Below are positions 11,391 to 28,141 of a stretch of 64,000 nt of DNA, one piece after another. The notes under the pieces were generated by a model. That model saw nothing but the letters and a program-made list of their open reading frames with translations. It did not search any database and was not told where the DNA came from. This DNA comes from a virus, in IMG/VR virus record IMGVR_UViG_3300042090_003221, positions 32,001 through 96,000 of that record, one strand, 5' to 3'. Position numbers and translations under genes: made by a program. Numbering within the stretch: position 1 is the first letter of the stretch; each line of letters begins with the position of its first letter.

Positions 11391-11399
11391 GAGGCGTGC

Positions 11400-12086: not shown

Positions 12087-12098
12087 CAGGAGGTCGCG

Positions 12099-12347: not shown

Positions 12348-12359
12348 GGAGCCCCGCCC

Positions 12360-13191: not shown

Positions 13192-13512
13192 ATGACCTTC
13201 GACGACGCCTTCCGCGAGATCGGCCGCCGGAGCCTGCCCGGCGGCGGCAAGACAATGGGCGCCGACGAGATCGCGTTCCGAGGCCGCCCGTTCGGTCGCT
13301 GGCTGTCCGCGGTCTCGCGTGTGCGCCTGCGCGACCCGCGCGAGAGCTACATGACGAACGCCGCGCACAGGATCCGCGACTCCAAGGTCGGCGGGGCCGG
13401 CTATTGGGTCGACCTGCGCGTCGCCGGCGACGTCACCGACGACGAGCTCGCCGAGATCCGCGCCCTTGCCCAGGCCGAAGACGCCCGCCCGGTCCGCGTC
13501 CGCCGCGCATGA
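13192..13512 (+). CDS. Hypothetical protein
   Basis: ATGA overlap with upstream ORF. Confidence 0.6.
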   Translation: MTFDDAFREIGRRSLPGGGKTMGADEIAFRGRPFGRWLSAVSRVRLRDPRESYMTNAAHRIRDSKVGGAGYWVDLRVAGDVTDDELAEIRALAQAEDARPVRVRRA

Positions 13513-13550
13513 ATTTTCGCACGCTGCGACAAAAAGCCCGACTTTCCCTC

Positions 13551-13580
13551 TTGACCATTAGGACAAAATGTCCTAATTCT
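13551..13580 (+). promoter_or_regulatory. Array promoter P3 with operator TTAGGAC-AAAAT-GTCCTAA
   Basis: TTGACC -17 nt- TAATTC; palindrome 13558-13576. Confidence 0.85.
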
Positions 13581-13603
13581 GTTTCCGGAGAGAGGAACCT
13601 GAG

Positions 13604-14113
13604 ATGACCAAGCACTATTCCGTCACCGAGACCGCCAAGCTCATCCGCGCCGCGCTCAAGGAAGCCTTTCCGGAGACCAAGTTCTCCGTCCGGTCTTCGA
13701 GCTATTCCATGGGCGCGTCGATCGACGTCTCTTGGACTGACGGCCCGATCAGCGCCCAGGTCGATCTGATCGTGAAGGGCTTCGCCGGCGCTTCCTTCGA
13801 CGGGATGCAGGATCTCAAGAGCCACCACAGCTCGATGCTGAACGGCGAAAAGGTCAGCTTCGGCGCCGACTACGTCCACACCAGCCGCGAGGTTTCCAAG
13901 GCCAAGGTCGCCGCCATCGCCGCGCTGCTCGAGGCCAAGGGTCGAGACCACTGGCTGACCATTTGCGTCCAGGCCGGTCATCCGTTCCCGACCCGCGCCG
14001 TCCAGCGCCACGACAACGCCCAGGACGTGGCGCGCTCGATCCTCCAGCACGTCGCTGACGCCAAATTCGAGGGCCGCAAGGCCTCCGCCGTCGCCGAGCG
14101 GCTCGCCGCCTGA
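13604..14113 (+). CDS. LPD29-like (large polyvalent protein-associated domain) protein
   Basis: TAKLIRAALKEAFPETKFSVRSSSYSMGASIDVSWTDGP..FDGMQD signature. Confidence 0.8.
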   Translation: MTKHYSVTETAKLIRAALKEAFPETKFSVRSSSYSMGASIDVSWTDGPISAQVDLIVKGFAGASFDGMQDLKSHHSSMLNGEKVSFGADYVHTSREVSKAKVAAIAALLEAKGRDHWLTICVQAGHPFPTRAVQRHDNAQDVARSILQHVADAKFEGRKASAVAERLAA

Positions 14114-14115
14114 CA

Positions 14116-14140
14116 CAGCCCGCGCCGCGCCAGCGGCGCT
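14116..14140 (+). repeat. Intergenic GC hairpin repeat, copy 2
   Basis: CAGCCCGCGCCGC-GCCA-GCGGCGCT. Confidence 0.6.
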
Positions 14141-14158
14141 CACCCGAGAGCCTCCGCC

Positions 14159-14374
14159 ATGATCAAGCCGACCGCCGAAGACATCGCCGCCCAGATCCGC
14201 GCCAATCCCGACCTGCGCCGCCGCGTCGCCTCCGCGCTCGCCGAGACCGCCGCCTACGTCGAAAAGGAGGGGCGCCGCTCCGCTGACCTCCGCCCCGCGG
14301 ACGTCACCAAAATATTCGAGTTCTACAAGGCGCACGCCGAGAAGCTGCGCACCGCGCTCGATCTCGCCGCCTGA
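14159..14374 (+). CDS. Hypothetical protein
   Basis: ORF flanked by hairpin repeats. Confidence 0.7.
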   Translation: MIKPTAEDIAAQIRANPDLRRRVASALAETAAYVEKEGRRSADLRPADVTKIFEFYKAHAEKLRTALDLAA

Positions 14375-14382
14375 CATTCCCC

Positions 14383-14401
14383 GCCCCGCGCGAGCGGGGC
14401 T
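14383..14401 (+). repeat. Intergenic GC hairpin repeat, copy 3 (compensatory change)
   Basis: GCCCCGC-GCGA-GCGGGGCT. Confidence 0.55.
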
Positions 14402-14420
14402 CATCCGAGGAACGCGGACC

Positions 14421-14597
14421 ATGCCCAGAGACAAAAGCGACGTGCGCACCGACATAAAGCGCGAGAACGCGGCGCGGAAGCGGCTGCTCGATCGCATAGT
14501 GCTGGCGAAGCAAAACTTGGCCCTATGCAACGGGCGTTTGGCGTCGCTGAAGCAAGAGCTGGCGAATGCGCCGGAGCCTCCGAAATACTTCTATTGA
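14421..14597 (+). CDS. Hypothetical protein
   Basis: GAGGA RBS; 58 aa. Confidence 0.5.
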   Translation: MPRDKSDVRTDIKRENAARKRLLDRIVLAKQNLALCNGRLASLKQELANAPEPPKYFY

Positions 14598-14605
14598 GGT
14601 CGACC

Positions 14606-14845
14606 ATGCACAACCCCGCCCCATGCAAGCGCCGCAAAGGCCTCTATCTCCGCTACAGCGCGAAGAATTGGTCCGACGAATTCGTGTGCTGCGCGTGCGG
14701 CAAGGCGCGCAGGTTCAGCCTCAATTATCTCGGCTTGCGCCGCGTGCCCATGTGCGACGGCGAAAGCATCAAGGCGGGCGAGGCGCTGGAATGGGAAGCA
14801 TGGCGAGCGCTCACCGACCAAGCCAATCGAAAGGAAACCGCCTGA
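14606..14845 (+). CDS. Small Cys-containing hypothetical protein
   Basis: GAGG RBS; CCACG motif. Confidence 0.6.
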   Translation: MHNPAPCKRRKGLYLRYSAKNWSDEFVCCACGKARRFSLNYLGLRRVPMCDGESIKAGEALEWEAWRALTDQANRKETA

Positions 14846-15066
14846 TGCGCGGCATGAACCTTTCAGCCGTCTTCCGTCAGGGCACGGGCAAGCGCTACGA
14901 GCAGCGCCCGCCGGCCAATTGCGTCGCCGCGCGCCGCGCCTGGGACCACTTCTCGACGCTCGGCGAGATCGAGTGGCTTCAGTTGCTCGACGGCTATTGG
15001 GGCGCGCAGCTCCGCGGCGAGCGCGACGTCACCGAGATCGAGGCGATCGAGTTTCGCCGTTACTAA
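14845..15066 (+). CDS. Hypothetical protein
   Basis: TGATG overlap. Confidence 0.6.
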   Translation: MRGMNLSAVFRQGTGKRYEQRPPANCVAARRAWDHFSTLGEIEWLQLLDGYWGAQLRGERDVTEIEAIEFRRY

Positions 15067-15079
15067 AAGGAGACGCATC

Positions 15080-15280
15080 ATGCACAACTACGGTTCAACC
15101 CCTTCCGACTTTCGCGTCGGCCAGCGCGTCGAGATCTCCCCGCACTTCGATCTGTGGATGAGGGGCGCCCGGTGCGGCGCCGTCGTCAAGATCGGCCGCG
15201 AGCGCGTCCATGTCCGCCTCGATCTCTTGCCGGGCCGCGCGCTCCGCTTCTCGGCGACTGACCTAATCGACCGGAGCTGA
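15080..15280 (+). CDS. Small SH3/KOW-like hypothetical protein
   Basis: FRVGQRVE..GAVVKIGRERVHVRLD; AAGGAG RBS. Confidence 0.65.
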   Translation: MHNYGSTPSDFRVGQRVEISPHFDLWMRGARCGAVVKIGRERVHVRLDLLPGRALRFSATDLIDRS

Positions 15281-15284
15281 CGCC

Positions 15285-15710
15285 ATGACGACCATCGACC
15301 TGATCGACAACGCGATTCACACACTGGAGAAGGTCGCCCACGACCTGACGGCGCTGCATAATCTGCGCGCCACAGATCTGGACGCGGAAGCCTTCGAGGC
15401 GAAGCTGAAGGGCGGCGCTCCGCGAGACAGCCTCGAATGGATGACGGACACGGCCACGAGGCTCGCCGAGGTCGACGCCACAATCGCCATCTTGCGCAAG
15501 GGCGTCTCCTATCGCCCGATCGAGACAGCGCCCGTCGACGAGTGCGTGATCCTCGCCACGACCGGCGGCTGCGTCGGCGAGGCCGTCTATGGCGAGAACG
15601 CCGAGGATCCGACGTGGCGCTGGATCCACGCCGACCAGCCGCTGCATCCCAACTTGAAGCCGCTCGGCTGGATGCCGCTGCCGCCGGAGATCGAAACCCC
15701 CGCAACCTGA
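15285..15710 (+). CDS. Hypothetical protein with DUF551-like C-terminus
   Basis: YRPIETAP...WMPLPP. Confidence 0.65.
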   Translation: MTTIDLIDNAIHTLEKVAHDLTALHNLRATDLDAEAFEAKLKGGAPRDSLEWMTDTATRLAEVDATIAILRKGVSYRPIETAPVDECVILATTGGCVGEAVYGENAEDPTWRWIHADQPLHPNLKPLGWMPLPPEIETPAT

Positions 15711-15726
15711 CCCAGGAGCCCGAGAG

Positions 15727-16005
15727 ATGCTCACCAAGGCCGAACACAACCGTCTCGTGAAGTGGGAGACGCGCGTCAACGAGATCGTCGAGCAGCTCCG
15801 CGCGCTCGTCGAGGCGAAGCGCGGGGCGATCGAGGCGCGCCGCGAGAAACACGACGCCCGGTCCGAGAAGTGGCTCGAGAGCGAGAAGGGGCTGGAGGCG
15901 ACCGAGAAGCTCGAGGCCGACGAAAGCCGCCTCGCCGAGCTCGACCAATGCGCCGACGACCTCGAGAACGCGATCAGCACCTTGCCGACGGAAGAGGAGG
16001 AATGA
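15727..16005 (+). CDS. Acidic coiled-coil hypothetical protein
   Basis: AGGAG RBS. Confidence 0.7.
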   Translation: MLTKAEHNRLVKWETRVNEIVEQLRALVEAKRGAIEARREKHDARSEKWLESEKGLEATEKLEADESRLAELDQCADDLENAISTLPTEEEE

Positions 16006-16043
16006 CCGCGACAGCGAGCCGCACGAGGCGGCTCGGTTGTTGT

Positions 16044-16073
16044 TTGACACGATAGGACTTTTTGTCCTATCGT
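16044..16073 (+). promoter_or_regulatory. Array promoter P4 with operator ACGATAGGAC-TTTTT-GTCCTATCGT
   Basis: TTGACA -18 nt- TATCGT; 10-bp arms. Confidence 0.85.
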
Positions 16074-16094
16074 AGGCGCGAAGGGATTTTGCAG

Positions 16095-16757
16095 ATGACG
16101 CACCCGTTCACAGTCTCCGGCCTTGGCGAGGCGCCGTTCAAGCTCGTCGCCGTGGCGCAGATCCCGCCGATCTCGCTCGCGGAATCGAACCCCGCGGCCT
16201 ACCAGCGCGGAATCGCCATGCTCCCGCCCGGTTGCGGGACGTGCAAGCATTGCGGCATGGCGATCATGCTTAATTTCATCGTTGAATCGGCGGAAGGCCG
16301 CCGGTCCGCGATCGGATGCGACTGCATCCGCAAGCTCGGCCACGTCGACAAGCCGCTCGTCAAGGCCGTTGACGAGGCCGCCCGCAAGCTGGCGCGCGAG
16401 AAGCGCCAAGCGGCCGCCGCCGTAAAGCGAGAGGCCAGGGCGGCCGCGTGGCGCGCCGAGAGGGCGCAATGGGAGATCGACAACGCCGAGCGGCTCGCGC
16501 GGGAGAAGGCCGAGCGCGAGGCGGCCGCCGCGGCGCTCGTCGCCCGGGCGCAGCGGTTCGCCTTCATGCTCCCGGCTCTGCGGAGCGCGGAAAGCTCATG
16601 GTGCAGCGAGATCGCCGACGCGATCGAGGCGGGGCGCCCGCCGACCGGCCGCGCCGTCGAGATCCTCCGCGACATTTACGGGCGCCGGTTCGGCCGGAAG
16701 GGCTCGGCGAAGTTCGAGGCGGCCGCCGCGCGGTTCGACGAGACGGTCTCCGCCTGA
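16095..16757 (+). CDS. Putative Zn-binding hypothetical protein
   Basis: CGTCKHCG..IGCDC, then coiled coil. Confidence 0.7.
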   Translation: MTHPFTVSGLGEAPFKLVAVAQIPPISLAESNPAAYQRGIAMLPPGCGTCKHCGMAIMLNFIVESAEGRRSAIGCDCIRKLGHVDKPLVKAVDEAARKLAREKRQAAAAVKREARAAAWRAERAQWEIDNAERLAREKAEREAAAAALVARAQRFAFMLPALRSAESSWCSEIADAIEAGRPPTGRAVEILRDIYGRRFGRKGSAKFEAAAARFDETVSA

Positions 16758-16804
16758 CACAATCCTCGTCGGCTCACGGGGTCGGCATGATCAAGGAAAA
16801 CGCC

Positions 16805-17011
16805 ATGGCAAAGACATTCAAGCTCCACTGGATTCGCGCCGACGGTCAGGGATCGCTCCCGATGGGCGCGTTCCCTTCACGCACCGCGGCGGAAGCCGCC
16901 ATCCCTGCCGCGAAAACCGAGATGCTCGATCAATGCGCCGTCGGCGAAGGGCACGAGGCAGGGATCGAGGCCGGACGGTTCGAGGTCAACGAAGTCGAGG
17001 AGTCCCAATGA
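16805..17011 (+). CDS. Hypothetical protein
   Basis: AAGGA RBS. Confidence 0.6.
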   Translation: MAKTFKLHWIRADGQGSLPMGAFPSRTAAEAAIPAAKTEMLDQCAVGEGHEAGIEAGRFEVNEVEESQ

Positions 17012-17208
17012 CCGACCAAATGCTCGCCGCCCTTGTCGGCGCGATCTCCGGCATCTCGATCGGCGTGTTCTGCGCGGCGACCGGCTATTCCTTCGGATAC
17101 CGCCACGGGATCCTCGCCGGTTGGACGGCGGGTTTCAAAGCGCAGCGCGCGCGGCTCCGGGCGGAGGGCTTCGTCGTGACGGGGCCGATTCCGAAGGCTC
17201 CGGAGTGA
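17008..17208 (+). CDS. Small membrane protein
   Basis: N-terminal TM helix; ATGA overlap. Confidence 0.6.
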   Translation: MTDQMLAALVGAISGISIGVFCAATGYSFGYRHGILAGWTAGFKAQRARLRAEGFVVTGPIPKAPE

Positions 17209-17266
17209 TCTACCGAGGCGCAATGTCGCGGCCCTGATTTAGGGCGCCGGAGCGGCTCAGCTCGAC

Positions 17267-17294
17267 TTGACATTAGGACAAAAGGTCCTAATGT
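17267..17294 (+). promoter_or_regulatory. Array promoter P5 with operator ACATTAGGAC-AAAAG-GTCCTAATGT
   Basis: TTGACA -16 nt- TAATGT; 10-bp arms. Confidence 0.85.
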
Positions 17295-17315
17295 AAGGGC
17301 GAGGAGAGTTTCGCG

Positions 17316-17558
17316 ATGACCAAGCTTCAGGCCTTGCTAGACGAATCCAACGCCGCCGCCAACGGTTCCGTCGCGTATCTTGCCGGGAACCTGATCGAAG
17401 AGGCGGAAGACAACGCCAATCAGACGGCGTTCATCGAAAAGGCCGTTCCTGTCGAGGAACGCGACCGCATGGCCGAAGCGAGCCTCGTTGATCTTCTCGC
17501 CTACTGCAAGGAACCCGAAATCTTGGCGTGGTTCGCCCAGCGTGGGATCGTCGCGTGA
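17316..17558 (+). CDS. Small acidic hypothetical protein
   Basis: GAGGAG RBS, first gene after P5. Confidence 0.75.
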   Translation: MTKLQALLDESNAAANGSVAYLAGNLIEEAEDNANQTAFIEKAVPVEERDRMAEASLVDLLAYCKEPEILAWFAQRGIVA

Positions 17559-17797
17559 TGCCCGCCACCGCCGAGCAGGTCTTCGCCGTGATCAAGAACA
17601 ACGGCGCCGTGCCGTTCCGCCAGCAGCCGACCGAAAAGGCGCTGCGCTACTACGCCGCCCTGATCGTCAAGAGCGGCGCCCGGTTCGCGGCCGACCAGCA
17701 CGCGCGGGACGCTTGGACCGGAATCACGAATTGGGCGCTGTCCAAGAACATCGCCCGGCTCGAGGCCGAAATCGCCAGAAAGGGAGCCCAGGCATGA
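17558..17797 (+). CDS. Hypothetical protein
   Basis: TGATG overlap. Confidence 0.65.
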   Translation: MPATAEQVFAVIKNNGAVPFRQQPTEKALRYYAALIVKSGARFAADQHARDAWTGITNWALSKNIARLEAEIARKGAQA

Positions 17798-18039
17798 CCC
17801 GCCTCACCGAAACAACCCCGGTCTACCTGATCAACACAAAGGCGAACCGCATCGTTCGCAAGTTCGGCAACTTCGACGCCTTCGCCCGCTTTGAGGGCAT
17901 TGCGCTCGGCTCGAACATGCACCTTTTCACAATGCGCGAAATGTCGACGGCCGGTTTCGTCTACGCCGAATGCGACGACACCGGCGACACGATCGCGACG
18001 ATATCGTCCTACCACGTCAACAAGGCGCTCGCCGCCTAA
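17794..18039 (+). CDS. Hypothetical protein
   Basis: ATGA overlap. Confidence 0.65.
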   Translation: MTRLTETTPVYLINTKANRIVRKFGNFDAFARFEGIALGSNMHLFTMREMSTAGFVYAECDDTGDTIATISSYHVNKALAA

Positions 18040-18059
18040 CCTCGGAGGTACAAATCTGA

Positions 18060-19433
18060 ATGTCCAACCGCACGATCGCCCTGCCGGTCACCGTCGCTGA
18101 TATCGTCGAGGAATACGACGCCAAGATTGCCGGGCTCGGCGAGTCCATCGCCCGCTTCGAAGCCGCGCAAACCGCGATGAGGTCGGCGACCTGCATCCAA
18201 GGCGTCTATGCCGAGAGCGTGTTCACCGACGCCCGGTTCTACGAGAACGCGATCAAGCTGAACTTGCGCAAGTCGGGCTGGAAGGCGGTCTATCGCCGCC
18301 TGGACGTTGAGCGCCTCGCCAGCGCCAAGGACAAGAAGCTTTTCGAGCAGACGCTCGCGGATCCGCCGGCGCTGACGCTCGACAACGCCAAGGCGACGTT
18401 CGGCAAATACCTGTTGCAGCCGCGCTTTCATGCGCTGCGCGGACTGGCCGAGGTTTTCAGCGGGCTCGATCCTGCCTACAAGTCGCACAGCAAGGTCAAG
18501 ATCGGCGTCGCCGGCTTGCCGAAGCGGGTCATCATCGGGAACGTCGGCGGCTATGGCTCTTGGGGCCGCGACCGGCTGCGCGATATCCTGAACGCGCTCG
18601 CAGCCGCCCAGGGGAAGCCTCTCGTCGAGCACGACGAGCTCACGCGCGTCGACCGCCTGGGCGGGTTCGAGCACCGCGCCGGCGAGGTCGCCTTCGACGG
18701 CTCCCCGATCAAGGCCTATCGCGACGGCAAGGACGTGGAATGGACGCCGCCGGCGCGCGGTGTCACGCTCAAGAAATTCCTCAACGGCAACGGGCACGTC
18801 ATTTTCGATGCCCCGACGCTGCTCGACATCAACCGCGCGCTGGCGGAGTTCTACGGCGAGGTCTTGCCGGACGCCGAAGACGACGCGCCCAAGGCGAAGC
18901 GCGCCAGCACGAACGTCTCGGCTGATCTCCAGTTCTACCCGACCCCGCGCAAGGCGATCGAGACCGTGCTTGACGAGATCGGGCTGGCGCCGACGCGCGA
19001 CCGCTGGAATGACGCCACGCCGGCGCGGGCGGTTCTCGAGCCCTCATGCGGCGACGGCCGGATCCTCGACGTGATCCGCGAGCGCGGCCACCGCGGGCTC
19101 GGCGTCGAGGTCCACCCGGCCCGGGCCGCCGCGGCGAAGACCAAGGGGCACGCCGTCATCGTCGCGAACTTTCTCGAGCGCCCGGCGGAGCCGCTCTTCG
19201 ACTTCGTGGTTCTCAACCCGCCCTTCAGCGGCCGCCACTGGATGAAGCATCTCGCCCACGCGAAACGCTTCGTGAAGCCCGGCGGGACGCTGGCCTGTAT
19301 CCTGCCGGCGAGCGCGGAATATGACCACGGGGTCGCCAAGGAACACGGCGGCGAGTGGCACGACCTTCCGGTCGCCAGCTTCAGCGAGAGCGGCACGAAT
19401 ATCCCGACCGGCTTCTTGGTCTGGCGGGCATGA
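18060..19433 (+). CDS. DUF4942-type amino-DNA methyltransferase
   Basis: KSHSKVKIG, KFLNGNGH, then QFYPTP, VLEPSCGDG, NPPF. Confidence 0.85.
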   Translation: MSNRTIALPVTVADIVEEYDAKIAGLGESIARFEAAQTAMRSATCIQGVYAESVFTDARFYENAIKLNLRKSGWKAVYRRLDVERLASAKDKKLFEQTLADPPALTLDNAKATFGKYLLQPRFHALRGLAEVFSGLDPAYKSHSKVKIGVAGLPKRVIIGNVGGYGSWGRDRLRDILNALAAAQGKPLVEHDELTRVDRLGGFEHRAGEVAFDGSPIKAYRDGKDVEWTPPARGVTLKKFLNGNGHVIFDAPTLLDINRALAEFYGEVLPDAEDDAPKAKRASTNVSADLQFYPTPRKAIETVLDEIGLAPTRDRWNDATPARAVLEPSCGDGRILDVIRERGHRGLGVEVHPARAAAAKTKGHAVIVANFLERPAEPLFDFVVLNPPFSGRHWMKHLAHAKRFVKPGGTLACILPASAEYDHGVAKEHGGEWHDLPVASFSESGTNIPTGFLVWRA

Positions 19434-19621
19434 TCTGGCCGACCCGCTACGAGGTCGTCCGGGTCCTGCAAGACGGCGACGGCGGCAGGACCTGGACCGT
19501 GCCGCACAGCTCGGCCCGCACCCTGGAAGAGGCCCGCCAGCTCGCCGAGCGCGAGCTCGCCCACTGGATTGTCGTCGAGAGGCGCGTCGTCGCCTCGTCA
19601 AAGAAGCAGGAGAAACCTTGA
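19430..19621 (+). CDS. Hypothetical protein
   Basis: ATGA overlap. Confidence 0.55.
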   Translation: MIWPTRYEVVRVLQDGDGGRTWTVPHSSARTLEEARQLAERELAHWIVVERRVVASSKKQEKP

Positions 19622-20298
19622 TGCGAACGGAACCGACCTTCACATGGATCGAACCCCCGATCGGGCCGCAGCCGCTGCCCGCCTGGGCGAAGGGCGTCGA
19701 GATCGAGTGGATGGGCCACTTCTGCAACCCTCCGCATCTCAAGGTCAAGACGGTCGGCAGCCCTATGCCGGAGGGCGTGTTGTGGCACAAGGACGGCGCC
19801 CGCTACTGGCGCCGGAGCCCCGAGGGCTTCCACGAGGAGAATTCGCACGCCGGTTCGCTGACATGGAGCCAAGTGGATGAGGCTTGGCTGACCTCGCGCG
19901 ATGACGGCTATGGCGGCCGGTGCTGGCGGATCCGGATGGCGCCCGAGGGGCAGTTTGAGCCGCCCTTCGACGTGGTGTTGCTGCGCGGCCCGTGGAACGG
20001 CGACTATCCCGCGGACTGCGACGCGGTCGCCTACTTCGACATGCGGAAGCGCTACGGGCGCGCCGACAGCCGGCCGCGCCCTTGGCACAAGGAAACGTTC
20101 ACCGGCGGTGTCTACATGACGCACGACCTCATCGTGCGCTTGCTCGCGCGGTTTCAGCCGCATCTGCGCATCGCGCGCGTCGAGCATCACGGCCGCGTCA
20201 GGATCGAGCCGGTGAAGCCCGAATGGGACGCTCCGAAGTTCGTCATCATCGAGCGCGAGCGGCAGGAGTATCTGGCGAAGCGCCAAGCCGCGGAGTGA
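19621..20298 (+). CDS. Hypothetical protein
   Basis: AGGAG RBS; GYGGR..LRGPW motif. Confidence 0.7.
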   Translation: MRTEPTFTWIEPPIGPQPLPAWAKGVEIEWMGHFCNPPHLKVKTVGSPMPEGVLWHKDGARYWRRSPEGFHEENSHAGSLTWSQVDEAWLTSRDDGYGGRCWRIRMAPEGQFEPPFDVVLLRGPWNGDYPADCDAVAYFDMRKRYGRADSRPRPWHKETFTGGVYMTHDLIVRLLARFQPHLRIARVEHHGRVRIEPVKPEWDAPKFVIIERERQEYLAKRQAAE

Positions 20299-20310
20299 GG
20301 CGGGCGAAAA

Positions 20311-20340
20311 TTGACAAACAGGACAAAAAGTCCTAACATT
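20311..20340 (+). promoter_or_regulatory. Array promoter P6 with imperfect operator ACAGGAC-AAAAA-GTCCTAA
   Basis: TTGACA -17 nt- TAACAT; left arm has two mismatches. Confidence 0.8.
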
Positions 20341-20375
20341 CCCCGTACGGGGTTTTACGCAAAAGGACGGAACCG

Positions 20376-20822
20376 GTGACCCCAACCCTGATCGAGACCG
20401 AAGCCTTTGTCCGCCGCCTGTTCTTCGGCGTCGTCGACAAGGCCGGGGAGCCTTACGTCGAGCATTGCGTCCGCGTCATGGAGGGTCTGCCCGCGGCCGC
20501 GACGGACGACGAGCGCCACGCCGCGCTCTTGCATGATGTCCTCGAGGACACGGACCTGACCGCGCGCGACCTGCACTTGAGCGGCTACAGCGAGCGGACG
20601 GTCTGGCTTGTCCAGCGCTTGACGAAGTGGAAAGGCGCCGACTATGGCGCCTACGTCGCCGCGATCACAGCCTCGCGCGACGCCGGCCTGATCGCCATCA
20701 AGCGCGCCGACCTAAAGGATAATTCCGACCCGGCGAGGCTCGCGTTGCTGCCGGCGCGCGAGCGCGAGCGGCTCGCGGCGAAATATGCGTCGGCGCGGGA
20801 GATCTTGGAGGCATGGAAGTGA
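20376..20822 (+). CDS. Small alarmone hydrolase (Mesh1/SAH/Aph1-like HD domain)
   Basis: DKAGEPYVEHCVRV..ALLHDVLEDT..LTK..IKRADLKDN, the RelA/SpoT hydrolase motifs. Confidence 0.85.
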   Translation: MTPTLIETEAFVRRLFFGVVDKAGEPYVEHCVRVMEGLPAAATDDERHAALLHDVLEDTDLTARDLHLSGYSERTVWLVQRLTKWKGADYGAYVAAITASRDAGLIAIKRADLKDNSDPARLALLPARERERLAAKYASAREILEAWK

Positions 20823-21121
20823 AAACCTCGCACCCGGTAGACGGGCGGACGCTGAGGCGCACGCGCCCGCTGCCTCATGACCCCGCGCTGCGCAAGAGGG
20901 CGAGAAAGTTCTCGGCTCTCCTCAAGGTGCTCGATATGTCCCAGACGCAAGTCGGGCGGTTCCTCGACTTGGACGGGCGCACGGTGCGCCGCTGGGCGTC
21001 CGGCGACAGGCCGATTCCGATCGCCGTCGAGATCGTCCTGACCTACATGGCGAGGAATGGCCTGACGCCGAAGGAGATCCTCGCCGCCTGCAAGATCAAG
21101 CGACAGCTGGACGTGAGATGA
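20813..21121 (+). CDS. XRE-type HTH regulator, candidate repressor of P1-P6
   Basis: MSQTQVGRFLDLDGRTVRRWASGDRPIP. Confidence 0.8.
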   Translation: MEVKTSHPVDGRTLRRTRPLPHDPALRKRARKFSALLKVLDMSQTQVGRFLDLDGRTVRRWASGDRPIPIAVEIVLTYMARNGLTPKEILAACKIKRQLDVR

Positions 21122-21152
21122 GCAGGTTCCTACCGAAGAAAAGGAGACTGAA

Positions 21153-21377
21153 ATGCAATTCAAGATCACGAACTACTGCGACCTCGACGGGGTGCCCGCC
21201 GTAGTCGCGACGCTGGACACGCCGAAGGGACTCGGAACCTACTGCTTCGAATACGTCGAGGGCCGGTGGCGGGAGCCGGAAGACAACGGCGCCGACGTCA
21301 TGAGCAAGTCCCGGGTCGTGACCCAGGACGTCTTCGAGCGCATGTTCCCTGACGTCGGCCTCCCGACGGCGCCGTAA
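21153..21377 (+). CDS. Small protein, putative immunity to the alarmone synthetase
   Basis: AAGGAG RBS; stop is 1 nt from the stop of the convergent synthetase gene; function inferred. Confidence 0.6.
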   Translation: MQFKITNYCDLDGVPAVVATLDTPKGLGTYCFEYVEGRWREPEDNGADVMSKSRVVTQDVFERMFPDVGLPTAP

Positions 21378-21378
21378 A

Positions 21379-24300
21379 TCAGGCGACGTTCGGTCGGAAG
21401 ATCGAATGCCAAGCCGGATCGAGCTTGTCCTGAACGCCCTTGTAAAGCGCGCTCATCTTGTTGGACAGCTCGGTCCGGGCGACCGGATCCTTTGACTTCT
21501 GCCATTCCTGATACATATCGTGGCCGCCTTGCTTTTCCTTGGCGTCGAGCATGCCGGGCGCCCACATTTGGACCTCGCCGATCTGGCCGCTCTTGAAGCG
21601 CACCATCACCTTGCGGTCGAAATAGCCCTCTGGCGTCTTCGTCCAGCCCTCGTCGGCGACTTCGAAGTGACGCGCGAGCTGGCGCACCACCTTGTCGCTC
21701 TGGTCGGGCATCGGGGTGTCGAAGCCGCCGCGCACCGCGTCGTTGACCTCCTGAACGGTCTTGCCGCGCTCGAGCTTCTCCATGATGCGATCGGTCTTCT
21801 TGACGCCCGGATCCTTCCACTTGAGCCCGATGTCCTGGGCGGCCGCGGCGCAGACGTCGGCGAGCGCCTTCTGATTTTCGGGCGACATCGCGATGAGCTT
21901 GTTGACGTCCGACGGCGCGGACTTGCGCCAGAGGTTCTTGCGCTCCGACGCCCATTCGGGGCCGTGCGCCTTCAGGCCGGGGCGGTAGGGGCGCGCCTCG
22001 GCGACCGCGGGCGCCGCAGGAGCCGCAGGAGCTGCAGGAGCTGCAGCGGGTTTTGCGGCCGCTGGCGCGGCGGGCTTGGCCGCCTGGGCGGGGGCGGGCT
22101 TTGCCGCGGCCGTTGGCGTCGGCTTCGCGGCGGGGCCGCCAGCGGGCTTCCCTACGGCTTTGGACACGTCAGCCTTCGAGGGCATGGGCTGGTAGCCGGA
22201 ATGGCCGGTGAAAATCATGGGGCGGCCCTTGGCGTCTTTCGGCGGCGTGATGGCCTTTTCGCCGCCCTTGGCCTTCGACGCGGGCTTGGCCTCCGACTTG
22301 CCGCCCTTGGCCGGCTTCGCTTTCGCGCCGCCGCCGCCGGATCCGAACTGCCCGGCGTTGCCCGGCTGGCCGCGCTTGTGCTTGCCTTCGTCCCATTTGC
22401 CGGCATCGAGCGCGAGGGCGCGCAGGCCGCGGCGGAGCGGGTCGGCGTCCATCGCCGGCGCCGGGCAGTCGCGCGCAGGCGCACGCGAGGGCTTGGCGGC
22501 CGCGGCGAGCTTGCGCAGGCCGGCGGCGATAGGGCAGGCGTCCATAGCGGCGTCCTTGGCTTTGGGGCGGGCTGCAGGCTTATTTTCTATCGGCGAGACG
22601 TTGTATTCAGCGCCGCCGCGGGCGAATCCTTGCTTCTCGCGCTCGGTCGGGACGTAGGGCTTGCCGGTGCTCGCGTCGATCGGGCCTCCGCCAGATTTAG
22701 GGGAGGCCGCTCCGAATTTAGCCAGTGTTCCCTCGATCTGGCGCTGCAGGTCCGGGCTCTTGCCGTGAACGTGGCCGAGCGCTTGCTGAAGCGCGTCAAT
22801 GGTCGCCTTGCGGTCGCCCTTGGCGTTAAACTCGCGCGCCGCGTTGATCGCTGTGTGAGCCGCGACCTCGTGCTGCGGCAAAGGCTTGTCGAGATCGCTC
22901 TCGGCGGGCTTGGCGGGGGAGGGGGAGGCCGCAGCGAGCTTTTCCGGATCGCCACGGCTAAGCCGATCAACAATACCGTGCATGCCGGCGTTCTTCAGCG
23001 CCTCAATCGAGCCGTGCTGCTTCAGGGCCTCGTAGTCTTTGTCGGTCGGCGCTGGCAAATTCGGCGCGCCGGTGATTTGCTGGCGGCCGAGCGACCCCTC
23101 CTTGTTCTGCATGCGTTGGATATCGGCCCACTCGTGCCCGAAGATCTTCCCGCCGTCGTGGTGATCTTTCGGCGGCGTAGCCGGCTTACGCGCTGTGGCG
23201 GGAGCCTTGAACTCGGCGGGCTTGGCGGCGGTGCTGCGGTTCGCGCGCGACCACTCTTGTACCGCGTCAACTTGGCTGCGGCCCTTGGCGCGTTCCTGAC
23301 GGACGTAGTCTTGCACGCTCATGGACGTCGGCGAACCGCCCGCGGTAGCCTCGGGCTTGGCCGCAGGTTCCTTGGGGTCCTGCGACCCGACCGCCTGCGT
23401 CTTGCGCAGCTGGTGACCGCGCTCGCCGCCGGCGCCCTCCGGGGCGGCTTCGAAGGTGTGCTCGCCGTTCGACCACTGCGGCAACCGGCTGTGTTCGACC
23501 GGGTTGAAGCCGTTTGCCTTCATGTGCGCGTCGAGCTTGGCGAAATGGTCCTTGTCGGAGAAGGAGGCTTGCGACTTGTGGCTCTCGATCGCGCCGCCTT
23601 CGCCCGCGACCCTGCGGTAGCCGAGGCCGCCGAGCTTCAGGCCGGCGCCCTTGCCCTCAGCCGGCTTGCCCTTGGCCGACTGTGAGAACTTCGCGGCCCA
23701 GGCGACGTCTGGATTTCCGGCCGGTTCTTGAGCCGGGGCGGCGTTGCCGGACGCGCCGGCCGCCTCCTTCGGCGGGTCGACCTTCTGGACCTCCCACTTG
23801 CCGCTGCCCGATCGCTTGTCCGCGTCGCGCTCGGCCGCGGCTTTGTTCACGCTCCAGCCGACGACGTGACCCGCCGGCTGCTCGCCACCTTGGCTGACGA
23901 CGGCGTAAAGCGGCTGAGGCTTCGCGCCGCGCTCGGCTTGGCCTGCCCAGAACTTGCGCATCAGGTCGTTGGGTTTAGCCGGCACGCCAGTGCTGGCGCT
24001 GGCGGGCTTGGCGGCTTTGGCGGCGCCCTTGGCCAGGGCGGGGTCGTCGCTGCCGCGCATCTGCTCGTCGAGCAAGGCCTTCTTGTTCTTCAGCGTGGCG
24101 TAGCTCTCGCCGCCGAGCTTTTCGATCTCGGCGTTGGCCTTCGCGTAGTCGCTGAAGTGCTTGTCGCCCTTCGCGCGCGCGGCCCGCGTCGGGCTTCTGA
24201 TCGCGGCCTCATAGGCGCTGTAGGCCTCATGGGCACGGCGCGTTGCGTTTGCGAGATCCTTATCCACGTTGCGCCCGCCCGCGCGCATGGCCTCTTTCTC

Positions 24301-25005
24301 GGCGTTGCGGGCGGCGACGAACTCCTGTTCCAGGGCCTTCATTTCCGGCCCGTTCATCTTCTCGTCGTGGCGCTTGCCGTTCGCGCGCATCGCCTCTTCG
24401 TGCATCTTCTCGGCGGCGGCGACGTCTTTCGTCCGCGTCATGTGCTCGTGCGCTTTGGCGTAAGCCGCCTTGTCGGCCTCGTCGCGCTCCTTGAAGTGCT
24501 TGGCGGAGAGCTCGGAGATCGCGTTCTTGATCTCGTGCGAGGGGCGGGGCGCCTTCGGCTTCGGCTTGTCGCTCAGATGCTCGGAGCCCGGGCCGGAGAA
24601 CGCGGCGTGCGCGCTCGTGCGCGAGTTCGCGCGGCCCTTGCCGGCGCCGCGCGCCTCGCCGATCGGCTTCCCGTTGAACTTGCCGCCCATGCCGCCCTTG
24701 ATCTCGCCGTTCTCGCCGATCAGGACCGGTGTCCCGGGGCCGTTCGCGTTCGGGTGGACGGTGATCCACTTGTCGGCATCCATCGCGAGCCGCGCGAGGC
24801 CGCGCCGCACCGCTGTATCAAGCGCCATCGTTCCGTCGCCCGCCATCTCTTCCCCCGCGTCATCGTTGTCCGGATAATCGTCCCAGCCGCCGGTCGCGGT
24901 GAGCATCTTGTCGGTGTCGCCGGCGTCCGGGTTGCTGAACTCTTCCTCGGAGATCTCCGGCAGCTCGTAATTCGGGTCTTTCGGGACCGGCATGAGCTTA
25001 CGCAT
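21379..25005 (-). CDS. Large putative virion cargo polyprotein with C-terminal RelA/SpoT-type synthetase domain
   Basis: C-term GVKKTDRIMEK..NDAVRG..EGYFD..GEVQMW..AKEKQGGHDMY; repeated AMD/ALD modules; AKP-rich linkers. Confidence 0.8.
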   Translation of the reverse strand: MRKLMPVPKDPNYELPEISEEEFSNPDAGDTDKMLTATGGWDDYPDNDDAGEEMAGDGTMALDTAVRRGLARLAMDADKWITVHPNANGPGTPVLIGENGEIKGGMGGKFNGKPIGEARGAGKGRANSRTSAHAAFSGPGSEHLSDKPKPKAPRPSHEIKNAISELSAKHFKERDEADKAAYAKAHEHMTRTKDVAAAEKMHEEAMRANGKRHDEKMNGPEMKALEQEFVAARNAEKEAMRAGGRNVDKDLANATRRAHEAYSAYEAAIRSPTRAARAKGDKHFSDYAKANAEIEKLGGESYATLKNKKALLDEQMRGSDDPALAKGAAKAAKPASASTGVPAKPNDLMRKFWAGQAERGAKPQPLYAVVSQGGEQPAGHVVGWSVNKAAAERDADKRSGSGKWEVQKVDPPKEAAGASGNAAPAQEPAGNPDVAWAAKFSQSAKGKPAEGKGAGLKLGGLGYRRVAGEGGAIESHKSQASFSDKDHFAKLDAHMKANGFNPVEHSRLPQWSNGEHTFEAAPEGAGGERGHQLRKTQAVGSQDPKEPAAKPEATAGGSPTSMSVQDYVRQERAKGRSQVDAVQEWSRANRSTAAKPAEFKAPATARKPATPPKDHHDGGKIFGHEWADIQRMQNKEGSLGRQQITGAPNLPAPTDKDYEALKQHGSIEALKNAGMHGIVDRLSRGDPEKLAAASPSPAKPAESDLDKPLPQHEVAAHTAINAAREFNAKGDRKATIDALQQALGHVHGKSPDLQRQIEGTLAKFGAASPKSGGGPIDASTGKPYVPTEREKQGFARGGAEYNVSPIENKPAARPKAKDAAMDACPIAAGLRKLAAAAKPSRAPARDCPAPAMDADPLRRGLRALALDAGKWDEGKHKRGQPGNAGQFGSGGGGAKAKPAKGGKSEAKPASKAKGGEKAITPPKDAKGRPMIFTGHSGYQPMPSKADVSKAVGKPAGGPAAKPTPTAAAKPAPAQAAKPAAPAAAKPAAAPAAPAAPAAPAVAEARPYRPGLKAHGPEWASERKNLWRKSAPSDVNKLIAMSPENQKALADVCAAAAQDIGLKWKDPGVKKTDRIMEKLERGKTVQEVNDAVRGGFDTPMPDQSDKVVRQLARHFEVADEGWTKTPEGYFDRKVMVRFKSGQIGEVQMWAPGMLDAKEKQGGHDMYQEWQKSKDPVARTELSNKMSALYKGVQDKLDPAWHSIFRPNVA

Positions 25006-26611
25006 GGTCGCGCCCCTTGTGATCGAACAGCCAGTCGACATGATCTTCGAGCTCTTTCGGCAACGTGCCGCGCTTGTATTCCGGCGACGTTACCAGCGCG
25101 GCGAGCTCCGCGTCGGTTTCTTTGATGTTCGTCGTCGCGTATTCACTGATATTCTCGCGGATCCACTTCTGCCGCGTCGTGTAGTCGATATTCAGCTTTT
25201 GCAGCACGCCCATAAGCCGGTCGGCTGACCGAACGCTCGATCGTAGGCCAAGGGCGTGCGCGAGTTCATGAACAATAGTCGCGCGCGCTTGGTCTTTGCT
25301 CGATGCGCTGACGGACCAATTCGCCTTTCCCGCAGCGATGCGCGCGTCGTTGGCTTCGGCTTGCCCTTGATTGAATTCGCCCCGCTTCGACGGGCTGATC
25401 GAAAAATACCCGACATCACCCTTGCCGGGCTCATTCCTGTACCATGCATGGCCGCAGGACTTGCCCGTCGAGCCCGCCGCCAAGACGACATGAGCCTTCG
25501 ACAGCGCCTTCTTGACGTCGAAGCCGTCGGCTTCCAACTTCGTCAGCGCGTCATTCACTTGCGAGACGATCTCCCGCATGCCCTTCGCCGAGGCGCCGGA
25601 CTGCGTGATATCGATCGGGGTGTGCCCCTTTATGCGGTAGCCCGGGTCGCTTCGCTTGGCCTCAATGATCTTATTGTATTGCTCACGCTTGGCCTTGCCA
25701 TCTTCGCCGTCCTTATCCGGGTGTTTATACCACTCGGAGAACGCCTTCTTGTCGTCGCCGTGCTTAACGCCGTTGATGAAACCGAGGCCGAAGCGCTCTT
25801 TCATGTAGTCGTGAATTTCTTTTGGCGTATCTTTGGCAAACGATTTTCCGCCCGTCGATTCAGCCTTTTTCTTAGTCTTGGGCTGATCCTTTTTGGCTTC
25901 TTTTTCGAGGCGCTTAATTTCGCTTTTGTGTTTATTGTAACCAAAAGCGTGGTTGTTCATTTCATTTCGGCGGGTCTTCGCCCAATCCTTCCACGACAAA
26001 TAAGCCGCATGGTGCGCGGCCATCGCCTTGCGGTGTTCGTCGAGCGTTTTGGCGTTCTCGCTGAGTTTGTTGGCCTCATCCGACAGATGGGCCTTCTTGA
26101 CCCTCTCGAACTCGTACGCTTCCTTGCTGCCGTAGGGGTGCGGGTTCTTGGCGCGCGGATCGAACGGCGGCGCTTCCGGCGGCTTCGGCGCTTCGGCGGG
26201 CTTCGGAAGCGCGAGCCGCTTCTCCGGTCCAGGGCCGAGCCAAATCGCCGGCGAGTGCTGGCTGGTCGAGCCGGACTTCGCCGCGCTCTTGCTGCTCGGA
26301 TTGACGAACTTGCCGTTGAGCTTGCCGCCGGCGCCGCCGATGATCTGCCCTGCGCCGTTGATCAGCGCGGGCTGACCCTTGTTGTCGGGGCCGTTGGGAT
26401 GGATCGTGATCCAGTGCTCGGCGTCCATCGCGAGCCCGCGCCAGCCCGCGGCGTCGTGCGCCGCGCCGCCGAAGCCCGTGAGATCGACGATCTCGGACGT
26501 CCCGCGGAAGACGACGCCGGCGGCGATCTTCGGCGCGGCGTCGGCGGCAAGGCGCGGCTTTCCCAGCGTAGCGGCGAAAGATCGCCAACCGCTTGCGGAT
26601 GCGTCGGTCAT
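24998..26611 (-). CDS. Putative virion cargo protein with C-terminal zincin-like metallopeptidase
   Basis: HELAH..ISEYATTNIKETDAE; N-term GWRSFAA..LAMDAEHWITIH. Confidence 0.75.
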   Translation of the reverse strand: MTDASASGWRSFAATLGKPRLAADAAPKIAAGVVFRGTSEIVDLTGFGGAAHDAAGWRGLAMDAEHWITIHPNGPDNKGQPALINGAGQIIGGAGGKLNGKFVNPSSKSAAKSGSTSQHSPAIWLGPGPEKRLALPKPAEAPKPPEAPPFDPRAKNPHPYGSKEAYEFERVKKAHLSDEANKLSENAKTLDEHRKAMAAHHAAYLSWKDWAKTRRNEMNNHAFGYNKHKSEIKRLEKEAKKDQPKTKKKAESTGGKSFAKDTPKEIHDYMKERFGLGFINGVKHGDDKKAFSEWYKHPDKDGEDGKAKREQYNKIIEAKRSDPGYRIKGHTPIDITQSGASAKGMREIVSQVNDALTKLEADGFDVKKALSKAHVVLAAGSTGKSCGHAWYRNEPGKGDVGYFSISPSKRGEFNQGQAEANDARIAAGKANWSVSASSKDQARATIVHELAHALGLRSSVRSADRLMGVLQKLNIDYTTRQKWIRENISEYATTNIKETDAELAALVTSPEYKRGTLPKELEDHVDWLFDHKGRDHA

Positions 26612-26729
26612 GTGTTGAGCTTCCCCTCGAATGATCAAAACTTCGGCCGATGCGTGGCAGAGGCGAAAAACGCCTTTGACTGCCGAGAGTCTGTGTGTGA
26701 TGCTCCAATCAACCAGGGAGCGTTATGTG

Positions 26730-26948
26730 ATGAAATATACCAAACAAGAATTGGACGAAGCAGCTATCTACGACTTAGCGATCGATGCCCGCACTTCGCG
26801 GGAGCAGGCAGAGAACGGCCCGTATTTTCCAGAAATCGGCATTACCCGCGAAAGCTGCATTGCCTACGCTGAAAAGTGCGAGCGCTCCATTGAGAGATAC
26901 AAAGACGGTGGGGCGCACGCGTTTGTCTTGGGCAAAGAATCGCTTTAG
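26730..26948 (+). CDS. Small antisense protein (possible immunity/moron)
   Basis: GGGAG RBS, TTGACT at 26676; converges on 26945..27715. Confidence 0.6.
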   Translation: MKYTKQELDEAAIYDLAIDARTSREQAENGPYFPEIGITRESCIAYAEKCERSIERYKDGGAHAFVLGKESL

Positions 26949-27715
26949 GTCTTCCGGGCCGTCTTAATCAGGTCCGACCACATGGCGTCAGCTAATTTCT
27001 GCGCGTGGTCGGAAAACATGCCGGCAGAGGATTTCTTGGTTTCATACGCGACGAAGCTTTCGGCCATGAACTCGAAAATGTTCTCCGCGCCATACGCTGA
27101 GGTCTGATTGTTAACAATGTTCAACGGACCTTTCCCACTATAACCCAGGTGCCCGTAGACGATTTTCCAGAATTTCTTGAAGCCTATCTTGTCTTCTAGT
27201 TTCGACGCGAGCAGGTGCCCGAATTCATGCGTCATGACGCCGCCGACGGAAGGGTCATTCATCATTCCGTCCCATTCCTTGGCGTATTTTTCTAGGCCTT
27301 CTTTTGTCCATGCTTTAGGACTCAGATTTATGTTGTTTCCGGAGCGATAAGCCAGCGCTCCCTCGCGTTCGTTTTCTTCTACCTTCGGTGACCCCGCCTC
27401 CGGATATTTTTTCGAAAGCTCGGCGACCCTGGAGTGCGCGACGGTCTTATGGTCATTCTTTCCCCGGACCTCGGAAATGTTTTTGCCCGTAAATTTTCCG
27501 CCTAGACCGCCTTTGACTTCGCCGTTAGCGCCGAGCAATACAGGGGATCCGGGGCCTTCTTTGTTGCCGTGAACTGTGATCCACTTCTCGCCAGCATCCA
27601 TTGCCAGGGCGCGCCATCCTGCCCGCGCCGCCCTCACCTTGCCGTCCTGCGCAAGGCGCGGCTTCGCTACAGCGGCGGCAAAGCTTCGCCAACCGCTCGC
27701 AAGTGCGTCGGGCAT
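26945..27715 (-). CDS. Putative virion cargo protein with zincin-like metallopeptidase
   Basis: HEFGH..SAYGAENIFEFMAESF; N-term GWRSFAA..LAMDAGEKWITVH. Confidence 0.75.
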   Translation of the reverse strand: MPDALASGWRSFAAAVAKPRLAQDGKVRAARAGWRALAMDAGEKWITVHGNKEGPGSPVLLGANGEVKGGLGGKFTGKNISEVRGKNDHKTVAHSRVAELSKKYPEAGSPKVEENEREGALAYRSGNNINLSPKAWTKEGLEKYAKEWDGMMNDPSVGGVMTHEFGHLLASKLEDKIGFKKFWKIVYGHLGYSGKGPLNIVNNQTSAYGAENIFEFMAESFVAYETKKSSAGMFSDHAQKLADAMWSDLIKTARKT

Positions 27716-27750
27716 GGTGTAGAGGTTCCCTGTTTCAGGAGGCGGGTCTG

Positions 27751-28104
27751 ATGATCGACGCGGCGACGCTTGCCGAGGCGCTCCAAATTCCGGAGCGGTT
27801 CTTGACGGCGACGGATTCGGCGCTTGGCGATTTTGTCGAGGCGCTCAATCTCGCTTCAGAGGCCGTGACTGTGGACACGGGGCGCGGCGCGCGCGCAATA
27901 CTCCGTCCCGACGGGAGCCCTGCCGAAGCCGGCGACTTCCGTCAAGGGGAGCGCATTGAGCTCCGCGAATATCAAGTAGGGAATATGGTCGCGAGCTCGA
28001 CCGCCGGCCCGGTCTTCTGGAACGACGGCAGCTTCTTTATCGACGGCGGCGGCAACCGGAAACAGCGCCGGGCGGCGCGGTCTTCGCGCGCTGGTACGCG
28101 ATGA
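27751..28104 (+). CDS. Antisense hypothetical protein
   Basis: AGGAGG RBS. Confidence 0.6.
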   Translation: MIDAATLAEALQIPERFLTATDSALGDFVEALNLASEAVTVDTGRGARAILRPDGSPAEAGDFRQGERIELREYQVGNMVASSTAGPVFWNDGSFFIDGGGNRKQRRAARSSRAGTR

Positions 28105-28141
28105 CCGACTCCGCGAGGGGGCCGTTCAGAGGCGCCGCGGC

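Follow-up and report, generated by a model that had tools for sequence, protein, structure and literature searches.

The window analysed here (64,000 nucleotides, positions 32001-96000 of the 115.8-kb IMG/VR provirus record IMGVR_UViG_3300042090_003221) carries, at the 3′ end of a long gene of a phage head module, a domain predicted to be an alarmone synthetase of the Tas1/Apk kind, and on the opposite strand an operon that encodes a hydrolase and a 74-aa candidate immunity protein. We consider it probable, at roughly two chances in three, that a phage carries here a toxin with its immunity, of the (p)ppApp-synthetase kind but laid out otherwise than the published Apk2 loci. Our verdict is that the locus is a variant of the Apk2/IapK/Aph1 scheme, of interest above all for its conserved putative immunity gene on the opposite strand. 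In the proposed mechanism the toxin domain would, like Tas1 and Apk2, move pyrophosphate from ATP to the 3′-OH of ATP or ADP, making (p)ppApp, draining ATP and blocking purine synthesis. The 74-aa protein would inhibit the toxin domain by direct binding, thus acting as cognate, specific immunity, and the hydrolase would destroy the product as a generic second antidote that only this phage has added. The coordinates of the features are collected in Table 1.

An earlier note on this DNA, made from the letters alone, had read RelA/SpoT synthetase motifs at the C-terminal end of the 1220-aa protein, and all five of the motifs it quoted were present, at residues 1079-1180 of the translation of 21379-25041(-). 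When the PDB was searched with the single sequence, Tas1 ranked first, but with an E-value (E) of only 0.67. An exhaustive HMMER search of 1.8 billion cluster representatives then widened the family to 625 relatives, 445 of them at E <1e-10, and many of the 625 sit within proteins of 1000-5000 aa. A profile built from 28 relatives matched the toxin domain of Tas1 (PDB 6OX6_A, residues 244-435) with E 4.4e-19, and the exported synthetase SaEAS (PDB 8VX3) with E 1.5e-6. The AlphaFold2 (AF2) model of the domain (predicted local distance difference test score, pLDDT, 95.3; predicted template-modelling score 0.89) had an alarmone-synthetase fold, for which Foldseek ranked SaEAS 8VX3 (5e-8) and Tas1 6OX6_A (1e-7) first, followed by SAS1, RelP and RelQ. 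Profile and model both bore out the assignment made in the earlier note, and on these two lines the domain is a Tas1/Apk-family synthetase.

The ATP-site and catalytic residues D1101, R1104, E1156 and Q1158 were all found in the toxin domain, and they are invariant or nearly so in the 28 relatives. They correspond to D121, R124, E182 and Q184 of SaEAS (R330, E382 and Q384 of Apk1), as mapped via the conserved ATP-site residues that have been listed for both enzymes (PMC12691689). K1081 of a syn1-like motif is also kept, and the positions of N370 and K353 of Apk1 are taken by K1144 and H1125, respectively. The acceptor site reads GYFDRK, a motif that is invariant across the clade and that places D and K at the two signature positions of syn3. 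Because the ATP-site residues map onto the domain and hardly vary, the enzyme looks active, with an unusual acceptor site.

The same comparisons bear on what such an enzyme would modify. It could be a tRNA 3′-CCA pyrophosphotransferase like FaRel2, PhRel2 and CapRel, which belong to the same superfamily of toxic small alarmone synthetases (toxSAS), and it would then block translation instead of draining ATP. Small alarmone hydrolases can also reverse tRNA pyrophosphorylation, so that a neighbouring hydrolase does not exclude this activity. We nevertheless regard it as highly improbable: the nearest sequence and fold relatives, Tas1 and SaEAS, are nucleotide-producing enzymes, neither CapRel nor FaRel2 is among the listed matches, and the pseudo-Zn-finger domains that neutralise tRNA-targeting toxSAS (PMC11782079) are absent here.

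The hydrolase provides the strongest indirect argument on the product. The earlier note had placed a Mesh1-like HD hydrolase opposite the synthetase. An HD hydrolase is indeed encoded there, but it is closest to Aph1: its best PDB match was 7SMG, the '(p)ppApp hydrolase' Aph1 (E 3.6e-14, residues 3-142 against Aph1 5-139), whereas the hydrolase domains of SpoT and Rel were matched with E ~1e-5 and MESH1 only with E 0.003-0.02. The protein is as compact as Aph1 (148 against 149 aa) and keeps the metal motifs H, HD, ED and D..DN. Aph1 is a (p)ppApp-specific hydrolase of a Bacteroides prophage (7SMG; PMC10083569), the Aph signature is made up of D24, R96, D116, R119, K133 and Y134, and D24 and R119 have been shown to confer (p)ppApp specificity (PMC10083569). 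Five of these six residues are kept in the window protein, as D21, D118, R121, K136 and Y137, and both specificity residues are among them; R96 aligns with an Ala, and an Arg is found five residues further on. Judged by these residues, the HD protein is a probable (p)ppApp hydrolase, and their retention argues that the neighbouring synthetase makes (p)ppApp.

To place the antidote genes in a wider context, 88 related loci were collected from IMG/VR, GTDB genomes and JGI metagenomes by scanning with the toxin alignment (alignment A1 was too divergent to yield patterns, and the smaller alignment A2 yielded them). No match was obtained when IMG/VR was scanned with exact peptide patterns taken from the single toxin sequence, or when ~50,000 GenBank phage records and ~72,000 PLSDB plasmids were searched with the toxin domain by tblastn.

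The 74-aa open reading frame (ORF) ends 1 nt from the synthetase stop, as the earlier note had stated (its own stop is at 21375-21377 and that of the toxin gene at 21379-21381). The encoded protein had no match in Pfam, PHROGs, NCBIfam or the PDB, a word-based search with this protein alone returned only itself, and the ESM Atlas offered no informative neighbour. Only ten called homologues were found in a collection of 5.8 billion proteins, and none of them has a name or a Pfam domain. When the 88 loci were searched by tblastn, hidden Markov model (HMM) and jackhmmer, 11 other distinct loci proved to carry a homologue, which in every case borders the toxin domain on its 3′ side; the E-values were 1e-39 to 6e-4 for the family HMM and 1e-32 to 1e-14 after iteration. 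Between 0 and 100 nt separate these homologues from the end of the domain, and all have an ATG and a Shine-Dalgarno sequence of their own.

The homologues occur in three layouts. In the stand-alone convergent form (loci L033/L035, L034, L036, L040, L061 and L032) the small gene overlaps the end of the toxin gene by 4-50 nt. In the nested antisense form (L037, L002/L038, L023/L046 and L043) the toxin-bearing ORF continues, to 1485-2902 codons in total, and the small gene lies directly behind the toxin domain, in the phase where the third codon positions of both strands coincide; the plus frame runs across it as a Ser/Pro/Thr/Ala-rich linker. These plus-frame ORFs are real, because their matches to PHROG families, phrog_6651 included, continue downstream of the nested gene. 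Finally, L039 encodes a 1241-aa protein in which a 74-aa-like domain (3296-3499(+)), read from the same strand and in the same frame, is fused directly behind the toxin domain; an internal ATG marks where this 74-aa-like domain starts.

When 60 toxin domains were placed on a maximum-likelihood tree, those of all 10 linked loci grouped in one clade (support 96/86), whose sole other member is a contig that ends 45 nt past the toxin domain. The small gene was found in none of the 47 rows of the sister clade on that tree, and iterating with jackhmmer added no member from the marine ~1100-aa clade. In that sister clade (L004-L022 and ~40 similar marine and freshwater loci) the toxin domain occupies residues ~780-960 of ~1100-aa proteins and is followed by a conserved tail of ~135 aa; within 8 kb these loci encode neither a relative of the hydrolase nor one of the 74-aa protein.

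The AF2 model of the 74-aa family, made from five sequences (pLDDT 88), consists of three strands and two helices and resembles nothing solved; the best VIA-align Z for this model was 3.9, with unrelated chains. A spurious antisense reading of a decayed C-terminal extension was considered as the origin of the ORF and was rejected, because the toxin-strand frame is closed in six stand-alone loci, and because the small ORF keeps its ATG and Shine-Dalgarno sequence everywhere and folds confidently. Its conservation and its predicted fold mark the 74-aa ORF as a genuine gene, from a family that has no name so far. The suggestion of the earlier note that it is an immunity gene was strengthened, since adjacency in 11 other loci and clade-wide co-occurrence support a dedicated partner of the toxin, for which binding is a candidate activity. 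Such a distribution is the pattern expected of a cognate immunity protein. As no related locus has a hydrolase within 8 kb, the 74-aa protein would be the primary partner, and the hydrolase would have been added by this lineage.

The small protein might instead be no inhibitor of the toxin but a co-regulator acting with the helix-turn-helix (HTH) protein, a chaperone or an assembly factor, which would leave the hydrolase as the only antidote. Its lack of similarity to Tis1 or to any known immunity protein, and its pairing with an HTH gene in three loci, are in line with such a role. We find this quite unlikely, because its position is tied to the toxin domain and not to the HTH gene, because it is also found nested or fused where no HTH gene is nearby, and because the relatives that carry it have no hydrolase within 8 kb, so that something else must protect those hosts.

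With the 74-aa protein taken as the cognate antidote, the toxin domain and the opposite-strand gene may form a functional design, that is, one portable cassette, a view that we hold only tentatively. The antidote, being on the other strand and in a stop-poor phase, would allow the unit to be inserted in the middle of a polyvalent ORF that stays unbroken, as in L037, L002, L023 and L043. In the phage of the window, the unit would have been resolved into convergent genes and upgraded with an Aph1-type hydrolase and an HTH protein under an operator for lysogenic or early expression. Lysogens would in that case resist the toxin that virions of kin phages deliver, and injection would arrest cells that lack the immunity.

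On the opposite strand, the promoter/operator, the HD hydrolase gene, the HTH gene and the 74-aa gene form one operon that ends 1 nt from the toxin stop. The genes overlap or are closely spaced (the start of the HTH gene overlaps the end of the HD gene by 10 nt), and an HTH homologue also lies directly upstream of the 74-aa homologue in L061 and L040. The promoter in front of the HD gene was the best sigma-70-like site in the 8 kb scanned, and a palindrome occupies its spacer/-10 region. This palindrome, AGGAC-N5-GTCCT, is present in six perfect copies, at 10424, 11936, 13560, 16054, 17275 and 20320, where 1.2 are expected by chance; all copies lie in the 11-kb plus-strand block, with none elsewhere in the 64 kb.

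Expression was traced in a wetland metatranscriptome (run X3), a single sample with unstranded contigs and possible DNA contamination of the RNA libraries. One contig, identical to window positions 20358-20665, begins just downstream of the promoter. Another, also identical (20784-21603, 820 nt, depth 11.7), covers the HTH and 74-aa genes, together with the end of the HD gene on one side and 225 nt of the toxin gene's 3′ end on the other. No contig was found on 21604-25358, the rest of the toxin gene, although an RNA-free stretch alone is no evidence of silence. Among the minus-strand cargo genes, an identical contig at 26733-26963 (depth 10.3) covers a 72-aa plus-strand ORF, and contigs at 27673-27976 and 27988-28138 cover a 117-aa ORF at 27751-28104(+). 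The separate control that the earlier note had proposed for the antidotes is supported directly by the sequence of the promoter (10/12 in the scan) and its palindrome, and for decoupled expression the metatranscriptome gave a weak hint that plus-strand genes are expressed while the late operon is not.

The setting of the toxin-bearing gene suggests how the toxin could be delivered. The gene sits in the head module, beyond the portal and MuF genes, and the protein starts with a leader and a WITVH module, continues through a long region rich in Ala, Pro and Lys to a second leader copy with an HPR-like motif, and closes with the toxin domain. The block G(W/L)R-x-LAMDA-x-(K/H)WIT(V/I)H...GGxGGK is found at the N terminus of this protein and of the two cargo proteins encoded before it (alignment A3). 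The family phrog_25904 covers residues 79-136 of the 1220-aa protein, and it matches both preceding cargo proteins too. The common N-terminal module is a candidate capsid-targeting or processing module, and the three cargo genes look like a polyvalent protein that was split into single-effector genes. The KHKRGQPGNAGQFG motif, which follows the second leader, is found at the start of the short homologues and to either side of the toxin cassette of L037 and L039, and we infer a module-boundary role for this region. In its general form, (K/D)H(P/K)RGQPGNAGQFG, the motif was observed before the toxin domain in the window and in the short homologues, and on both sides of the toxin-plus-antisense cassette in L037 (7857-7961 and 8871-9065); it could mark the border of a module or be a site of recombination or of cleavage.

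The relatives have a similar context. In L035, a 1027-aa protein (2838-5921(+)) is a portal, 40% identical to that of the window, fused to a Tas1-like toxin domain. This fusion gene overlaps at its 3′ end with a convergent gene, which encodes a 70-aa homologue of the 74-aa protein. In L037 and L039 the toxin-domain relative comes after MuF, and other relatives are inside giant proteins that match the 'internal virion protein' family phrog_6651. RelA/SpoT domains in polyvalent proteins have been described before, with the proposal that they enter the cell together with the injected DNA (Iyer et al. 2017; PMC5512222). This proposal, together with the portal, MuF and internal-virion context of the relatives, makes packaging of the 1220-aa protein plausible. 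The toxin protein and its two zincin-motif neighbours would be loaded into the capsid via the common N-terminal module and ejected with the DNA, and the antidote operon would have a repressible promoter of its own and be transcribed in lysogens, in the early phase of infection, or both. A cell that carries or makes the phage would thereby be protected while the late, convergent toxin gene is silent or its product is being packaged.

The ejected synthetase could also serve host take-over, by briefly shutting down the metabolism or the defences of the newly infected cell before an early antidote operon switches it off. Such a role was proposed by Iyer et al. for RelA/SpoT domains in polyvalent proteins (PMC5512222), and the position of the antidotes in a block of ~30 plus-strand genes under one common operator looks early or anti-defence. 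We hold this to be doubtful as the main purpose, since the environmental RNA contigs fit lysogenic expression at least as well; it is, however, compatible with a toxin/immunity system, and the present data do not tell the two apart.

Several observations weigh against a (p)ppApp-type toxin/immunity system. The last 213 residues of the toxin-bearing protein had no family match in Pfam, PHROGs or NCBIfam. In none of the 88 related loci is an HD hydrolase encoded within 8 kb of the toxin domain, so that the link between hydrolase and toxin is drawn from this one operon. The 74-aa family had no sequence or fold similarity to Tis1 in the searches made (phmmer, a 12-sequence profile against the PDB to E 10, Foldseek and two VIA-align runs). 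The RNA evidence comes from a single metatranscriptome with unstranded contigs, and we infer packaging, late expression and repression of the toxin gene. Finally, syn3 signatures have been defined as 'GxN' for Apk and 'SxH' for RelA/SpoT homologue (RSH) enzymes (PMC12226406): here the Apk-type signature (G-x-N after GY) is absent, the RSH S-x-H is absent as well, and syn2 reads AVR, as in (p)ppGpp synthetases/RSH enzymes. The GYFDRK acceptor motif thus fits neither enzyme type, and (p)ppApp is therefore a putative product.

These motifs are the ground for supposing that the main product is not (p)ppApp but (p)ppGpp, both alarmones or a compound made on another acceptor, which the HD protein would then clear. 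The D-R-K of syn3 is unlike Apk, the AVR of syn2 is RSH-like, and SaEAS, the top fold match, prefers guanylate acceptors (PMC12691689). On the other hand, swaps of syn motifs in Apk2 left its specificity unchanged (PMC12226406), which makes these motifs poor predictors of the product. The profile matched Tas1 (4e-19) far better than it did SaEAS (1.5e-6), and the linked hydrolase keeps the D24 and R119 specificity residues of Aph1. We therefore judge a different main product to be unlikely, and retain (p)ppApp as the expected one.

Table 1. Features of the toxin/immunity locus and its surroundings (window coordinates unless a locus is named)
Feature	Position	Strand	Basis or remark
Predicted Tas1/Apk-like alarmone-synthetase (toxSAS) domain, residues ~1022-1215 of the 1220-aa protein	21397-21978	-	profile, AF2/Foldseek, residues
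74-aa protein of unnamed family, candidate cognate immunity protein	21153-21377	+	AGGAG 7 nt before ATG; AF2
148-aa HD-domain small alarmone hydrolase, Aph1 type	20376-20822	+	PDB 7SMG; phrog_990 1e-33
102-aa HTH protein (HTH_23/Xre-like), candidate regulator	20813-21121	+	Pfam HTH_23 E 5.7e-6
Sigma-70-like promoter TTGACA-N17-TAACAT	20311-20339	+	scan score 10/12
Operator palindrome AGGACAAAAAGTCCT in spacer/-10 region of promoter	20320-20334	+	
1220-aa head-module 'cargo' protein	21379-25041	-	G+C at third codon positions (GC3) 0.85; no Pfam family
N-terminal module LAMDA-x-KWITVHPN...GGxGGK of the 1220-aa protein	24652-24819	-	alignment A3; phrog_25904
Internal second leader copy RRGLRALALDAGKW, then KHKRGQPGNAGQFG motif	22327-22446	-	residues ~866-890
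546-aa cargo protein, common N-terminal module, HELAH zincin motif	24998-26638	-	weak Reprolysin_3 match E 0.017
256-aa cargo protein, common N-terminal module, HEFGH zincin motif	26945-27715	-	
Stand-alone MuF-like head-morphogenesis gene, 289 aa	28385-29254	-	Pfam Phage_Mu_F E 1.5e-17; phrog_324
706-aa uncharacterised protein of the head module		-	listed between portal and MuF
Portal	32272-34278	-	
Large terminase	34271-35902	-	
Nested antisense homologue of the 74-aa protein, L037	8555-8797	-	
Nested antisense homologue, L002	8564-8788	-	
Nested antisense homologue, L023	8615-8836	-	
Nested antisense homologue, L043	1805-2050	-	

The window has a G+C content of ~65%, and the GC3 values of the toxin-bearing, HD and 74-aa ORFs (0.85-0.89) are typical of coding sequence in this genome. 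The minus strand carries a Mu-like head and tail module, in which the MuF gene lies two genes upstream of the toxin-bearing gene and is followed by the three cargo genes. Next comes a block of ~11 kb with ~30 small plus-strand genes (10491-21377), which interrupts the head module, with the cargo genes on one side and the prohead protease on the other; past this block the minus-strand module continues with prohead protease, scaffold, major head protein and tail sheath. The window portal is at most 42% identical to any GenBank phage portal, and megablast of 20300-25100 against GenBank phages gave no match. A pair of adjoining tRNA genes, Thr-TGT and Asn-GTT, was found within the prophage at 42024-42178(-).

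Two further plus-strand ORFs lie between the minus-strand cargo genes, and neither had a match in PHROGs. The 72-aa ORF (26730-26948) has an AGGGAG 9 nt ahead of its ATG and overlaps the stop end of the 256-aa HEFGH gene by 4 nt, in the same convergent layout as the toxin/74-aa pair, and it may encode an inhibitor of the HEFGH peptidase. The 117-aa ORF (27751-28104) occupies the interval that separates MuF from the 256-aa cargo gene.

The first descriptions of (p)ppApp synthetase toxins carried by phages date only from 2023-2025, and the clade reported here is large (625 cluster representatives) and has been missed by curated family models. The toxin rides on a scaffold other than MuF, for which we propose virion targeting. 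Its constant partner is a small protein from a new family whose genes lie on the opposite strand, in relatives even within the toxin-bearing ORF, where standard gene callers will miss them. The double-antidote logic, a candidate binder plus an Aph1-type hydrolase, has been assembled again, with independent transcriptional control. The locus thus offers a compact, testable system in which to ask when, and for whom, a capsid-delivered alarmone toxin is meant.

Four known systems can be compared with this locus. SaEAS, the exported synthetase of Streptomyces albidoflavus (8VX3; PMC12691689), was the top Foldseek match and has the same conserved active-site architecture. It differs from the system described here in being Sec-exported, in having no immunity gene and in being bifunctional, since it makes both (p)ppApp and (p)ppGpp (PMC12691689). 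Tas1 (Apk1), which with Tis1 forms a type VI effector-immunity pair of Pseudomonas aeruginosa (6OX6), gave the best profile match and was also at the top of the fold matches. Its R330, E382 and Q384 have equivalents in the window domain, whereas its N370 and K353 are replaced. Furthermore, Tas1 is delivered by a PAAR protein and the type VI secretion system, in contrast to the phage head context found here, and Tis1 is not matched by the 74-aa family.

The polyvalent RelA/SpoT proteins of phages and conjugative elements (PMC5512222) are encoded in the same head-module context, and relatives of the toxin domain occur likewise in multidomain virion proteins of 1100-2900 aa with zincin-type and other effector domains. 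In the window, by contrast, the effectors are distributed over three separate genes with one common N-terminal module. An opposite-strand immunity gene was not described for the polyvalent proteins (PMC5512222).

The closest parallel is with the Apk2 loci, in which MuF is fused to a (p)ppApp synthetase and is followed by a co-oriented Tis1-like binder, IapK, and then by Aph1; the binder is strain-specific and the hydrolase interchangeable (PMC10083569, PMC12226406). Loci of this Apk2/IapK(BcTis1)/Aph1 type have been found in temperate phages of Bacteroides caccae, Streptococcus pneumoniae, Mannheimia and Pasteurella (PMC10083569, PMC12226406). Shared with them are a phage head-module protein with a C-terminal Tas1-like pyrophosphokinase toxin domain, and a double immunity made of a small dedicated protein, here a candidate, and an Aph1-type HD hydrolase, here a clear Aph1 homologue. 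The toxin-bearing protein nevertheless falls outside Apk2 as strictly defined: MuF is encoded on its own, two genes upstream, the toxin polypeptide contains no MuF, and the immunity genes are convergent. In place of MuF there is a leader/WITVH module, common also to two zincin-motif proteins, the acceptor motif is GYFDRK, and the small protein has no detectable similarity to Tis1. Whereas the antidotes of Apk2 are co-oriented downstream of the toxin gene, those of the window phage converge on it from an operon of their own, which includes an HTH gene and is controlled by its own promoter and operator.

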